The notes under the pieces: generated by a model | The model's database searches: none | Told to the model about the DNA's origin: nothing | What the model saw: only the letters and a program-made list of their open reading frames with translations | Shown: positions 4,522 to 64,000 of the stretch, piece by piece | Position numbering within the stretch: the first letter of the stretch is position 1 | How the letters are laid out: every line of letters begins with the position of its first letter | From: a virus | Taxonomy: Duplodnaviria; Caudoviricetes | Length of the DNA: 64,000 nt | IMG/VR virus record: IMGVR_UViG_2513237213_000006 | Span: 1-64,000 of that record | Strand: one strand, 5' to 3' | Translations under genes and position numbers: made by a program

Positions 4522-4533
4522 CTGTGCTATCAA

Positions 4534-4782
4534 CTAATTAAACGGTAGACTCCAGCGCATAACATCGTTGAACGAAACAGACATCCCTCGCGTTTTGAAA
4601 AACGGCTCCCCCTGCTCGTCATAACGAATTTTTGATTTTGTGAGTCTGCTCGATTCGCCAGAAGTTACCCATCTAAATACCACCTTGTCATCTATACCGT
4701 GCTCAATGTCCCAAACTTCAAGGGAACAAAACGGCCCCATAGGGTAATAGCCGATAAAATTATTGTACTGTTTCATTGTCAT
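4534..4782 (-). CDS. Hypothetical protein (82 aa)
   Basis: ORF, stop/start overlap with the upstream gene. Confidence 0.65.
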   Translation of the reverse strand: MTMKQYNNFIGYYPMGPFCSLEVWDIEHGIDDKVVFRWVTSGESSRLTKSKIRYDEQGEPFFKTRGMSVSFNDVMRWSLPFN

Positions 4783-5054
4783 GCCTCCATATAGCTCAAG
4801 GTGTTCTTTAATACCCGCAAGGTGTTTTTTTCGTTCTCAATCATAAACGCCTGTGCTTGCAACTGCTCGATTTGTTGTTTCATATCGGACAGTAGGGCAG
4901 GGGAGGGATTGAAAAAATCCTCTTTGATTTGTACCCCAACTGCTGCCTGAGTTACCTGCATTTTGTTCCAAAGTACCCGCATGGATTCCTCAAGCGTCCA
5001 CACTCGGTGCATTGCCTTTTCCTTCTCCTGTTGTACCATAAATGTGTCAATCAT
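4779..5054 (-). CDS. Hypothetical coiled-coil protein
   Basis: ORF track 4779..5144; ATG 5054 fits AGGAG RBS. Confidence 0.6.
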   Translation of the reverse strand: MIDTFMVQQEKEKAMHRVWTLEESMRVLWNKMQVTQAAVGVQIKEDFFNPSPALLSDMKQQIEQLQAQAFMIENEKNTLRVLKNTLSYMEA

Positions 5055-5147
5055 AAACAACATCTCCTTTTGATTGTTTTTTGCTGGTAGTTGATACCAT
5101 GAAGGACACCATGATGCGAACCATGATGCCCTCGGTGCTATCAAATA

Positions 5148-5639
5148 TCAATCGGTCAATTCGGGTTTGAACCGGCTACTATAACCGCTCACATGAATAC
5201 TGCCGTATTTTGCGCGTATCGCGTCCATATCCTTCCCGCCTTTTCTGCCTGTGCTTTTCATCCATGCTGGTCTCCAGTACCACATGTGCTTTTTACTTGC
5301 CCAGCGGCATCCTATGTTTTTCAATTCATCCTTGTGCTCCTTCGTGTTGCCGCTTATCCATAGCCACTCGCCGCACAACTCTACATCTACCTCGATATTT
5401 AACAGGGCGTTGATGACATCCCTGTAACCATCGTCCACATCGTCAAGGTTAATATTTTCAGAATGGGTTTTACGTTTGATGCCCGCTTTGATGTCCTTGA
5501 AACACAGTTCATATTCGGCTGACATTGCCTTAAACTCTTCCTCCGAACCGCCGAGGTCGGGGTGCAGTTTCATTGCCCACTGTTTGTATGCTTTTTTCAG
5601 TTCCTTCATATCCACGATGTTCTTGAAATATTTAAACAT
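5148..5639 (-). CDS. J-domain (DnaJ-like) protein with a C-terminal W-rich domain
   Basis: LKKAYKQWAMKLHPDLGGSEEEFKAMSAEYE contains the HPD motif. Confidence 0.85.
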   Translation of the reverse strand: MFKYFKNIVDMKELKKAYKQWAMKLHPDLGGSEEEFKAMSAEYELCFKDIKAGIKRKTHSENINLDDVDDGYRDVINALLNIEVDVELCGEWLWISGNTKEHKDELKNIGCRWASKKHMWYWRPAWMKSTGRKGGKDMDAIRAKYGSIHVSGYSSRFKPELTD

Positions 5640-5740
5640 TGTTCAAACCCCCTGTGATTTTCAAATCGGATAAAACAGGCAAGACCATCCGACTATATTT
5701 CAAGACGGACGGCCAGCCCGAAAATGGTCACTTTTCGACT
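5640..5740 (-). promoter_or_regulatory. Conserved upstream element, copy ahead of the J-domain gene
   Basis: Palindrome-flanked CGAAAA-TGGTCAC-TTTTCG at 5719-5737, 82 nt from the ATG; TATAGT -10-like hexamer downstream on minus strand. Confidence 0.7.
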
Positions 5741-5913
5741 GCGGCAAATACCATGTGATGCAGATCAACGGTTTTTCCGAACACATAACACTCGCCGTTA
5801 TAGTAGGTCGGCACGTTGTAGCCATCGTTGTTGGCATCGTGGTAGTTATCAAAGACTTTTTCAATCTTTACTGTGCAGAAACGTGGTGTAAAAACTTTGT
5901 CTCCGATATTCAC
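5728..5913 (-). CDS. Hypothetical protein (61 aa)
   Basis: ORF with AGGAGG RBS; its stop lies inside the conserved element. Confidence 0.65.
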   Translation of the reverse strand: MNIGDKVFTPRFCTVKIEKVFDNYHDANNDGYNVPTYYNGECYVFGKTVDLHHMVFAAVEK

Positions 5914-6839
5914 GCTACGGCCTCCTTTTTCTTTGCAGTGGTCTTCTTAGTGGCGGCCTTTTTCGTCGTGGATTTTTTCGCAGTGGTCTTCTTTGTCGTG
6001 GTCTTTTTCTTTGTTTTGGGGCTGGTGTTTTTCTTTTCGATTTCTTTAGCCTCGGCCTGTAATTTTTCGATGTAATCTGCGTCAATCACAACCACTTCAG
6101 GCTCCTCGGTCTTGTCCTCGGTCGGCAGGTTTTCAAGCCACCATGCTTCGTCAGCGTGTTCGCCGTCAATATTCACCCCATACTGTGAGCGTTTGTCGTA
6201 ACTAACAAACCAGTCGTGAACCATTTCGGCGGTGCAAGTGTAGACAGGCAAGCACATCGGAAGGTTCGGAACAGGCGCGGTTGGTTCGTTCTGTTCTTTT
6301 TGTGCCATCTTTGCAAGGATAGCCTCCCTCGACAGGCCGAACTCCTTCTCAAGCAGATCAAGCATTGCCTCGTTGATTTTGGCCTTGCGGGTGCGGGTCT
6401 TGCGCGGGGGGATAATGCCCGCCTTGCGCATCTCCTTTTCCTTTTGGTATTGCTCCATGTGTGTTTTCCAGTCGCGTGCAGGCCGTCCTTCGATTGGTTC
6501 AATCTCGGTGTAACCTTCCCCACAGGCGAGGTCGCGATACATCATAAGCGTCTGCGTCGTTGTTTTCGGCCATTCGCCCTCCTTGACTTCGCCAGTTGCC
6601 TTGTCAGTCGCATATATTCCGGCGTGGGACAAACGGAAGGTCTTTGCGTTATCATTCACAACACAGATGGGGTGCTCGAAGAAATAGAACACGCGCGTTG
6701 CTTCAAAGGTTTCGGCTTCAAGGTCTTTGTCTGCGATGATGGTCACAGGCAGGGGACGCGGTTTAATGGTCACCGCATGATTCCCCAGCTTCATGATGGT
6801 TTCTTTAGATTCCCATACCTTCAGTACACTCTTTTTCAT
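5910..6839 (-). CDS. Hypothetical protein with a histone-H1-like K/T/A-rich C-terminal tail
   Basis: C-terminus KTKKKTTTKKTTAKKSTTKKAATKKTTAKKK; AGGAG RBS. Confidence 0.8.
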   Translation of the reverse strand: MKKSVLKVWESKETIMKLGNHAVTIKPRPLPVTIIADKDLEAETFEATRVFYFFEHPICVVNDNAKTFRLSHAGIYATDKATGEVKEGEWPKTTTQTLMMYRDLACGEGYTEIEPIEGRPARDWKTHMEQYQKEKEMRKAGIIPPRKTRTRKAKINEAMLDLLEKEFGLSREAILAKMAQKEQNEPTAPVPNLPMCLPVYTCTAEMVHDWFVSYDKRSQYGVNIDGEHADEAWWLENLPTEDKTEEPEVVVIDADYIEKLQAEAKEIEKKNTSPKTKKKTTTKKTTAKKSTTKKAATKKTTAKKKEAVA

Positions 6840-62849: not shown

Positions 62850-62878
62850 TTGACAACACATATAAAAAGGTGTACTAT
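62850..62878 (+). promoter_or_regulatory. Sigma-A promoter of the RNA cluster
   Basis: TTGACA-17-TACTAT (TATAAT overlapping) with AT-rich UP region. Confidence 0.75.
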
Positions 62879-63131
62879 AATCAAGGATTAAAAAAAAACA
62901 GTTTCTACATTGTTTATATCTTCTAATTTAATCATTGTTACTGTTGTTTTTGATTTCCTCTTTTCACAGCATAGGGTTTACTGCCCTGTGTACCGTTCCT
63001 GATGGTTTTGAGTCGCTTCTTTCCTTCGGGTTCGGTATAGAGTGCAGTAAGATTTGTCTTTCTTAGGCAGTTGTTGCACCTCCTTATAATTTCTTTTCAC
63101 ATATACGAGGCCACCAACTGGTGGTTCTCAC

Positions 63132-63206
63132 AGGGGTATAGCCAAGTGGTTAAGGCATCGGACTTTGACTCCGACATCGGTGGTTCAACTCCACCTGCCC
63201 CTGCCA
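63132..63206 (+). tRNA. tRNA-Gln (TTG)
   Basis: Cloverleaf: acceptor AGGGGTA/TGCCCCT, anticodon arm TCGGA-CTTTGAC-TCCGA, T-loop TTCAACT, CCA. Confidence 0.95.
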
Positions 63207-63210
63207 ATAT

Positions 63211-63249
63211 GCACTCCAGCGGGTTAACGCCTGTCTTGCGGGTGCTCCA
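63211..63249 (+). ncRNA. 39-nt CCA-ended tRNA minihelix with Gly-type acceptor end
   Basis: GCACTC/GGGTGC stem, T discriminator, CCA; internal CGGGT-TAAC-GCCTG hairpin. Confidence 0.5.
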
Positions 63250-63252
63250 AAT

Positions 63253-63424
63253 CACCGTATTAGTTCAAAGGTAGAACAGTGTTTTTCCGTATTATGTACT
63301 ACGGCTTTTTCGATAACGTCGTTGATACGTCCGTCAACCATAGTCATCTTGTTTTCCGCATAGCCACGGTATAAAGCAAAGAAAAAACGCAAGCACGGGG
63401 TTCGATTCCCCGATACGGTGCTCC
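63253..63424 (+). ncRNA. tRNA-like RNA with a 102-nt insert replacing the anticodon loop
   Basis: Acceptor CACCGTAT/ATACGGTG; D arm GTTC-AAAGGTA-GAAC; anticodon stem GTGTT/AACGC; variable AAGCA; T arm CGGGG-TTCGATT-CCCCG. Confidence 0.8.
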
Positions 63425-63426
63425 TT

Positions 63427-63510
63427 GGGCGAGTAGCGAAGTGGTTAAACGCAGCAGACTGTAAATCTGCTCCTTCGGGTTCGGTGGTTCAAATCCACCC
63501 TCTCCCACCA
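63427..63510 (+). tRNA. tRNA-Tyr (GTA)
   Basis: GCAGA-CTGTAAA-TCTGC anticodon arm, long variable arm, T-loop TTCAAAT, ACCA; one acceptor mismatch. Confidence 0.95.
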
Positions 63511-63514
63511 TATC

Positions 63515-63622
63515 ATCAGAGTGCGACTCCTTTCAAATCCCTTTGGATATGTCTGATGTGTCTGCGCTGCATTAGATAATTCTTTCTTCATCCCCTATGA
63601 AGTTTCTTATCAGCACTCTGGC
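63515..63622 (+). ncRNA. Structured multi-branch RNA element
   Basis: CAGAGTGC(63517)/GCACTCTG(63613) closes ATCC-CTTT-GGAT and CTTCA/TGAAG hairpins. Confidence 0.45.
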
Positions 63623-64000
63623 CAGAATGAATTACATACCGACAGTGCCGTGTTAACCAATGGTTTACTGATGTCGTAACAACTGTTGGAATGTATTCAG
63701 ATAGACTAGAGCCTGTCAACAATTTGGTGAAGAACTCTTACATACTACAATGAGTTGGCATGGTTCAAATCAAAAAAATGGAATATCTGTAGTCGCATGA
63801 ACAACCCGTCAGGGGTGCGTGGTGAATGTTGCAGATGTTCCGAAGTCTAGCTAGACAAAACTACCTAACTTATTTACGGCTATCTCCAACCGGCAGACCT
63901 CTTTGGATGAGTTGAGGCGAGGCAAATCGAGAGTCCTGAACATGACATAACTGTTCCGACAAGGGCCAGTCGTTAAAAACCAGCGGGGAGACCAACCAAT
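63623..64000 (+). ncRNA. Large structured RNA, 5' part (ROOL/GOLLD-class candidate), runs off the window
   Basis: No ORF; stems CCGACAGT/ACTGTTGG, 12-bp GAATATCTGTAG/TTGCAGATGTTC, AACTC/GAGTT, GAACA/TGTTC; follows phage tRNAs. Confidence 0.6.

Follow-up and report, generated by a model that had tools for sequence, protein, structure and literature searches.

The 64,000-nt stretch of DNA analyzed here (the window) ends inside a 547-nt RNA that is conserved, non-coding and structured on the plus strand only. Comparison of homologues revealed at least nine local helical domains (P1-P9, plus the terminator) that compensatory changes have preserved and that invariant single-stranded linkers connect. 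Our analyses suggest that this RNA, the last unit of an accessory tRNA cassette, probably represents an undescribed family of non-coding RNA that would be released, accumulate and act in trans. The best reading is that of a new family analogous to ROOL and GOLLD, that is, a phage RNA of tRNA operons.

The terminal unit of a tRNA cassette

The window covers positions 1 to 64,000 of a 72,893-bp contig (C5) within a 3.63-Mb genome. The EF-Tu of the host falls into a 90%-identity cluster shared with Mitsuokella and Selenomonadaceae proteins, and the host is therefore a Negativicute, within the Firmicutes. The contig (~73 kb) has the appearance of a phage, or of a phage-plasmid, from a Selenomonadaceae host. 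Its closest relatives by gene content are IMG/VR viral contigs of 66-71 kb, and the upstream neighbours of the cassette are a primase-helicase and further replication genes. At 71456-71483 of C5 (8957-8984 of L007, the sequence C5:62500-72893) there is a sub-threshold match to CRISPR-DR4 (30.1 bits, with a gathering threshold of 35); no cas genes were seen nearby.

We completed the RNA unit by reading on past the end of the window in L007. Positions 62892-64084 (L007 393-1585) contain no ORF of 70 aa or more. The part of this block that follows tRNA-Tyr, which ends at 63510, is 547 nt long and has a GC content of 44%, compared with 51% for the host. It is closed by a two-tier hairpin with a U7 run at 64019-64057, beyond the end of the window, which thus shows only the first 490 nt of the unit (63511-64000). 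Downstream of the terminator, from 64071 onward, come an AGGAGG site and a 73-aa gene that starts with TTG and overlaps the dUTPase gene; the gap between the terminator and this ribosome-binding site is ~15 nt and contains no promoter. Neither the 211-aa protein encoded upstream nor the 73-aa protein encoded downstream matched a Pfam or PHROG family. A preliminary description of the window had reported nearly 500 nt without an ORF after a tRNA cluster and had suggested a large structured RNA of a Firmicutes phage. All of this was borne out: the ORF-free part measures 490 nt in the window and 547 nt when complete, it closes a tRNA operon headed by a single promoter-like site, the EF-Tu of the host groups with Mitsuokella and Selenomonadaceae, and the RNA is non-coding with a conserved structure.

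The cassette is ordered as promoter, leader, tRNA-Gln, CCA minihelix, tRNA-like RNA, tRNA-Tyr, large RNA and terminator (Table 1). Its promoter-like site is the sole good one upstream on the plus strand. Because the RNA ends the tRNA operon behind this one site, co-transcription of the large RNA with the tRNA-like RNAs, as proposed in the preliminary description, is plausible. The further idea put forward there, an RNA-only module aimed at translation, is conjectural. A second promoter-like match (9/12) in the T-loop of tRNA-Tyr was judged to be due to chance, because its start site would break P1. In descriptive terms, the unit is an intrinsic-terminator-bounded tRNA operon RNA, with a promoter-like site, upstream tRNAs, a hairpin with a U-run and no ORF.

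Table 1 Features of the tRNA cassette and of its terminal RNA, in window coordinates continued on contig C5 beyond position 64,000
Feature	Position	Strand	Remarks
Promoter-like site TTGACA-17 nt-TACTAT	62850-62878	+	10/12 matches; would drive the whole non-coding operon
Leader, ~245 nt	62885-63131	+	Spanned by the nhmmer match in homologous loci
tRNA-Gln(UUG)	63132-63206	+	ARAGORN and Rfam
CCA minihelix and interrupted tRNA-like RNA	63207-63426	+	Between tRNA-Gln and tRNA-Tyr
tRNA-Tyr(GUA)	63427-63510	+	ARAGORN and Rfam
Large RNA	63511-64057 (G000:C5; L007 1012-1558)	+	Last unit of the cassette, 547 nt
P1 domain	63517-63620	+	CAGAGUGC (63517-63524) pairs with GCACUCUG (63613-63620); 9 pairs, 2 compensatory
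Invariant linker GCCAGAAUGA, P2 and UUCAGAUA	63621-63703	+	P2 63634-63646/63682-63694; UUCAGAUA 63696-63703
P3 and A-rich linker	63709-63778	+	GAGCC 63709-63713 pairs with GGUUC 63762-63766
P4	63780-63841	+	63780-63792 pairs with 63829-63841; contains CCCGUNGGGG and GGUGAAUGU
P5, optional palindromic hairpin GUCUAGCUAGAC	63845-63856	+	Comparison of homologues
Conserved linker ACCUAACUUAUUUA	63863-63876	+	Candidate partner of UUAGGU in the P3 arm
P6-P7 module	63878-63956	+	Nested GG/CC, UCUC/GAGA, GC/GC and CCUC/GAGG with invariant internal loops; P7 loop AUGACAUAAC
P8 hairpin	63957-63972	+	3'-domain consensus
P9 hairpin, 9 bp, loop ACCAAU	63983-64011	+	Starts in the window, ends beyond it

Other parts of the cassette also recur. 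tRNA-Gln was found at every homologous locus. The CCA-ending minihelix (GCACUCC...GGGUGCUCCA) is present in L048 (~2180-2220), L137 (~1445-1485) and L032 (3046-3090), with compensating changes in its inner hairpin; in L036 (144-211), L040 and L093 its place is taken by a weak tRNA-like unit (31.9 bits) that ends in GUGCUCCA. As these minihelix and tRNA-like units recur across loci, they are conserved parts of the cassette. The leader, likewise conserved at the homologous loci, holds the anti-Shine-Dalgarno-like sequence CACCUCCUU at 63077-63085, which is kept in the leaders of L036, L134 and L137, and its positions 63022-63036 are an exact 15-nt copy of a segment of the tRNA-Tyr variable arm (63471-63485). 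About 1.1 kb upstream of the tRNA cassette of L093 (ERZ842401 NODE-808), positions 110-181 match RAGATH-18 at 68.3 bits, above the gathering threshold.

Relatives without the cassette (L011-L018) keep the order of the 211-aa gene, the 74-aa gene and the dUTPase gene. The interval between the first two genes holds a 123-aa ORF and a TTGACA-18-TATTAT promoter in place of any tRNA, and covariance models of the 3' domain of the RNA (R1) and of its P6-P7 module (R2) found no match in these relatives. Their promoter directly precedes the 74-aa gene; in the window's group, a 1.2-kb non-coding cassette lies between the two. Since the flanking genes are kept in relatives that lack it, the cassette is accessory.

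Homologues and covariation

Direct DNA searches for the RNA returned nothing from the phage collection, the plasmid collection, 61 relatives and 262 host-family genomes. In 150 genomes of the class R1 detected no copy other than the window's own, and the same was true of R2 in 150 genomes sampled from the phylum. IMG/VR relatives of the upstream 211-aa gene had no tRNAs and lacked the RNA. Full-length relatives of the downstream dUTPase, which has an unusual N-terminal extension of 75 residues, led to syntenic metagenomic contigs. These have a ~1.1-kb gap between a ~215-aa gene and a 74-aa gene, which nhmmer shows to be homologous to that of the window. An equivalent gap was found on an NCBI assembly encoding a 95%-identical dUTPase. 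L093 and L061 were added by a motif scan (loop and terminator) of a metagenome collection, the other 79 of 81 stretches being chance matches; a strict terminator pattern found no match in IMG/VR.

About a dozen contigs from related rumen and gut phages carry the RNA. Eight copies are full-length (L007, L032, L034, L036, L040, L048, L093 and L137; 533-578 nt, ~60-88% identical). The others are partial: L061 is cut at the 5' end, L050 and L134 share the 3' domain only, and L132 and L133 are short variants of ~240 nt. The conserved sequence always begins directly after the preceding tRNA or tRNA-like unit and always ends in a terminator. All full-length homologues were reached through the downstream dUTPase, and their constant position before the dUTPase operon is partly ascertainment. 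Phylogenetically the set is shallow, with ~8 distinct sequences that all come from a single phage group.

The short variants (L132 2564-2800 and L133 2525-2800) come from phages with a 206-aa dUTPase. They follow tRNA-Gln, have a different terminator, and show a minimal 3-bp P2 between the usual GAAUGA and UUCAGAUA flanks. Across the homologues, copies that are otherwise little alike (such as L137 compared with L050, L034, L048 and L134) share 84-94% identity over the final 80 nt of the RNA and the opening codons of the 74-aa gene. This near-identity of the terminator and gene start could reflect a recombination joint between phage modules and not selection on the RNA.

Folding and coding analyses both point to an RNA of the plus strand. 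The minimum free energy of the plus strand was -165.6 kcal/mol, compared with -142.6 +/- 6.5 kcal/mol for shuffled sequences (z = -3.56; none of 100 shuffles was as good), and the minus strand folded no better than its shuffles (z = +0.23). No stop-free frame was common in strand, frame and position to the 10 homologues, and indels are not multiples of three. G-U pairs alternate with G-C or A-U pairs on the plus strand in P4, P9 and the terminator, which identifies this strand as the functional one.

The preliminary description had called for a covariation analysis, and compensatory changes were indeed found in sequence-only MAFFT alignments, with shuffles and slid partners as controls that ignore phylogeny. 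The RNAalifold consensus of the full-length alignment (A7) contains 77 pairs, and in 26 of these a compensatory double change occurs at least once. In the alignment of the 3' domain (A3, 10 sequences), 97.7% of cells are paired and 12 pairs show double changes, compared with 4.6 +/- 1.5 after shuffling (0/500 as many) and 0-3 with slid partners. The 3' domain folded alone was close to its shuffles (z = -0.64) and its minimum free energy structure differs from the covariation structure, so thermodynamics alone would mislead here. The 5' domain could not be aligned in register by MAFFT, and P1 and P2 therefore rest on folds of the individual sequences and on the pairs recovered in A7.

Three local helices singled out in the preliminary description recur among the homologues. 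The 8-bp helix 63517/63613 (P1) is found in all full-length homologues, with one compensatory change from U-A to C-G. The helix 63639/63682 (P2) forms a hairpin in 10/10 homologues although the stem sequences differ. The 12-bp helix 63781/63829 (P4) has five pairs with double changes (2.5 +/- 1.2 after shuffling) and 90% of its cells are paired, compared with 33-50% for slid partners. The proposed long-range pairing of TAGACT with AGTCTA did not survive the comparison: most homologues lack both halves, and AGTCTA is part of the local hairpin P5.

The 5' half of the RNA is variable and the 3' half is highly conserved. P1 encloses variable hairpins with UCCCCU motifs. Between the invariant GAAUGA and UUCAGAUA, the stems of P2 take different sequences (ACAUACCGACAGU, CGCGGUCGGU, CACCUCA and CAUACAGUGA). 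The closing stem of P3 is kept as GAGCC/GGUUC, AAGCC/GGCUU or GAGC/GCUC, with an arm that ranges from a 5-nt loop to ~50 nt. The optional parts are P5 and one hairpin after P7. The P5 palindrome persists in altered form in L034, L061 and L093; L032 has a GAAA hairpin in its place, and L036, L040 and L137 lack it. The order from P1 to P9 and the invariant linkers are nevertheless kept in 8/8 full-length copies.

The RNA had been described as ornate. The comparison supports its many local domains; multistem junctions and pseudoknots of the ROOL kind are not among the supported helices, all of which are local. No long-range helix linking domains was supported in the consensus folds of the eight sequences and no pseudoknot had covariation support in them, although eight sequences give little power for the latter. 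As no supported long-range helix joins the domains, the RNA may not fold as one body. The motifs UUAGGU (P3 arm) and ACCUAA (the linker after P5) tend to be present or absent together in the eight sequences; this is the only hint of a long-range contact between domains and is suggestive only.

Several resemblances were followed up and rejected. The motifs GUCGUAACAA in P2 and CCGUAGGGG in P4, together with CACCUCCUU in the leader, prompted the idea of a mimic of the 16S rRNA 3' end. Local alignment to the 16S tail of the host scored 23, compared with 18.9 +/- 2.1 for shuffled sequences (16/300 as good), and other 16S windows scored up to 27. CAA in the P9 loop is not a Gln specifier codon for tRNA-Gln, as L134 has CAU there. 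Hammerhead-like or box C/D-like elements (GAUGAG, CUGA) occur in an unfit order and matched no Rfam model, and a ToxI-like repeat antitoxin was dismissed because there are no tandem repeats.

Known RNA families and the movable P6-P7 module

ROOL and GOLLD occur in a context comparable to that of this RNA (PMC5737381; bioRxiv 10.1101/2024.12.08.627333), and the preliminary description had suggested membership in one of these classes or kinship with them. Membership was not supported. At gathering thresholds, Rfam 15 (4227 models) recognized only the two tRNAs. Permissive scans returned nothing relevant on the 1.3-kb region (E<=10), the 10-kb extension (E<=1) or the RNA of 11 homologous loci (E<=10). 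This includes the sequence beyond position 64,000, to which the preliminary description had proposed extending a search for ROOL, GOLLD and group I introns. A group I intron is rejected, as there was no match to Intron_gpI (E<=10) and the RNA interrupts no gene.

The ROOL model (RF03087) did not reach its gathering threshold of 99.1 bits on the window, the extension or the 11 homologous loci. The same model recognized ROOL at 320-345 bits in 4/151 genomes of the host's class, and ROOL is absent from the genome studied here. R1 in turn gave only noise on those ROOL loci (best 8.6 bits, on the wrong strand). The resemblance to ROOL is nevertheless broad. ROOL averages 581 nt and is phage-borne, tRNA-adjacent and rumen-associated (PMC5737381), and the RNA of the window has 547 nt and directly follows tRNA-Tyr on a 72.9-kb phage-like contig. 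Both are RNAs of ~550-580 nt from Firmicutes phages or prophages of rumen origin that lie beside tRNA genes, are probably co-transcribed with them and have no defined function. They differ in that neither matches the other in sequence or structure, and the RNA of the window supports only a chain of local domains.

GOLLD is likewise a large phage RNA near tRNAs, with a conserved 3' part, a variable 5' part and, in some cases, embedded tRNAs (bioRxiv 10.1101/2024.12.08.627333). The same asymmetry is present here, and the tRNA-Gln of L133, which lies between P6-P7 and P2-P4, recalls the embedded tRNAs. However, GOLLD is usually longer than 800 nt, compared with 533-578 nt here, and its model found no match in the whole-Rfam scans. 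Nanocages or oligomers belong to the GOLLD side of this comparison.

More distant parallels concern the operon and its processing. The tRNA gene cluster of phage T4 contains two small stable RNAs, species 1 and 2, of about 120-140 nt. They are non-tRNA RNAs of a phage tRNA operon that are released by tRNA-processing enzymes, as would be the case here, but they are far smaller. In MALAT1/mascRNA and in mitochondrial transcripts, as here, a long non-coding RNA directly adjoins a tRNA or tRNA-like unit, and cleavage by RNase P or RNase Z would set the ends. These systems are eukaryotic or organellar, and the analogy is one of mechanism only.

The P6-P7 module also occurs on its own. R1 matched L133 at 2364-2445, in the leader directly before tRNA-Gln, and made a second, partial match in L034 directly 5' of a tRNA. 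A pattern for the P7 hairpin found a single IMG/VR contig, L150 (IMGVR_UViG_3300028048_000086, 118 kb), from an unrelated phage. There the module lies within an island of ten tRNAs and stops 9 nt short of tRNA-Met, and no dUTPase operon is beside it. R2 confirmed the module in L133, L150 and the second L034 copy. In these stand-alone copies (~90 nt), P7 ends 3-9 nt before a tRNA, and RNase P cleavage would leave P7 as a 3'-terminal hairpin. Alignment of 13 module sequences (A6) gave 18 pairs with 94% pairing, 12/18 having double changes; the 33 cells with double changes compare with 9.7 +/- 2.5 after shuffling (0/500 as many) and at most 7 with slid partners.

In L133, P2, P3, a P4-like hairpin and a ACCUAACUUA linker follow tRNA-Gln and the module precedes it, so that the tRNA separates parts that are contiguous in the window. 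L150 additionally encodes a true ROOL (177.8 bits, 4522-5107) 750 nt upstream of the module in the same tRNA island. Given this distance, ROOL and the module are separate things that share a habitat. The 410-nt ORF-poor spacer of L150 between tRNA-Trp and tRNA-Met (5551-5960), which ends in the P6-P7 module, contains a P2-like flank pair (GAAUGA...UUCAUAGA) and may be a distant relative of the RNA of the window.

Possible roles and their alternatives

We propose that the operon precursor would be cut by tRNA-processing enzymes, with maturation of tRNA-Tyr generating the 5' end of the RNA and intrinsic termination the 3' end. Once released, the RNA would accumulate and act in trans while the phage infects its host, an assumption also made for ROOL and GOLLD. 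Contacts for tertiary folding, self-association or a host partner would be provided by the invariant linkers and loops. Most transcripts would stop at the terminator, and only read-through would reach the 73-aa gene and the dUTPase gene.

The position of the terminator, ~15 nt before the next ribosome-binding site with no promoter between, also suits a role in cis, in which the 3' domain and terminator would form an attenuator controlling read-through into the 73-aa, dUTPase and replication genes. The terminator has hardly changed in sequence, unlike other helices, which drift, and all full-length copies and the short L132 and L133 variants precede the same gene pair; a cis role is compatible with this constant position, even though the constancy is partly ascertainment. 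Still, we consider attenuation unlikely. Relatives have the same genes behind a plain promoter without the cassette, an RNA of 550 nt with nine domains is far larger than known attenuators, an alternative antiterminator pairing was not found, and the P6-P7 module also lies within a tRNA island, before a tRNA (L150). It is rather unlikely, too, that the transcript is a row of independent small RNA modules that are cut apart after transcription and have separate roles. The P1-P9 order and invariant linkers are kept throughout the full-length copies (8/8), known processing signals, tRNA-like or other, are missing between the modules, and the co-occurrence of UUAGGU and ACCUAA hints at a long-range contact. 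Such a row would nonetheless be consistent with the local nature of all supported helices, the optional P5 and post-P7 hairpins, a P3 arm of 5 to 50 nt, and the solitary P6-P7 copies before tRNAs in L133, L150 and L034.

A very divergent ROOL or GOLLD, missed because the Rfam models are too narrow, appears most improbable. The length (547 nt, with 581 nt on average for ROOL), the phage origin, the tRNA neighbours and the rumen-associated host family would fit ROOL (PMC5737381), and the conserved 3' and variable 5' parts would fit GOLLD (bioRxiv 10.1101/2024.12.08.627333). However, no match was found in 12 loci at E<=10, ROOL itself scored 178-345 bits in genomes of the class and in L150, R1 gave noise on ROOL loci, and L150 carries ROOL and P6-P7 separately, 750 nt apart. 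Hardly any weight can be given to a DNA-level element, such as a replication origin or packaging site, or to a decayed gene, in either case without an RNA function. The sequence does sit in a replication module and is AT-richer than the host (44% compared with 51% GC), but its folding is strand-specific and the many G-U pairs that it keeps would become C-A mismatches on the opposite strand. Compensatory changes are unexpected for protein-binding DNA, no repeats or iterons were found, and a decayed gene is opposed by the lack of any residual reading frame. A more far-reaching reading, which we regard as doubtful, is that of a third, independent class of large tRNA-island phage RNA, in which the P6-P7 unit would be tied to tRNA 5' processing and the whole RNA would assemble into a higher-order structure. 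The module could then act as a 3' cap that protects the upstream RNA once RNase P has cut, or could even process itself and thereby release the tRNA, and an assembly like those of ROOL and GOLLD might be built, by analogy, through the invariant loops and the palindromic P5 hairpin.

We thus favour a trans-acting RNA released from the end of the tRNA operon. To our knowledge, bacterial and phage non-coding RNAs of more than 500 nt with a conserved structure are few (rRNA, group II introns, OLE, GOLLD, ROOL, HEARO and raiA), and we know of no large tRNA-linked non-coding RNA whose function has been established. A distinct family in the niche of ROOL and GOLLD would lend weight to the idea that large functional RNAs are generally at home in phage tRNA operons, and adds a further case for asking what large tRNA-linked RNAs have in common. 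The movable module that precedes tRNAs, once beside a true ROOL, raises the question of which product RNase P cleavage leaves, and whether that product is stabilised. As the host family is culturable and the element lies on a separate 73-kb replicon, deletion and expression work on this RNA should be feasible.
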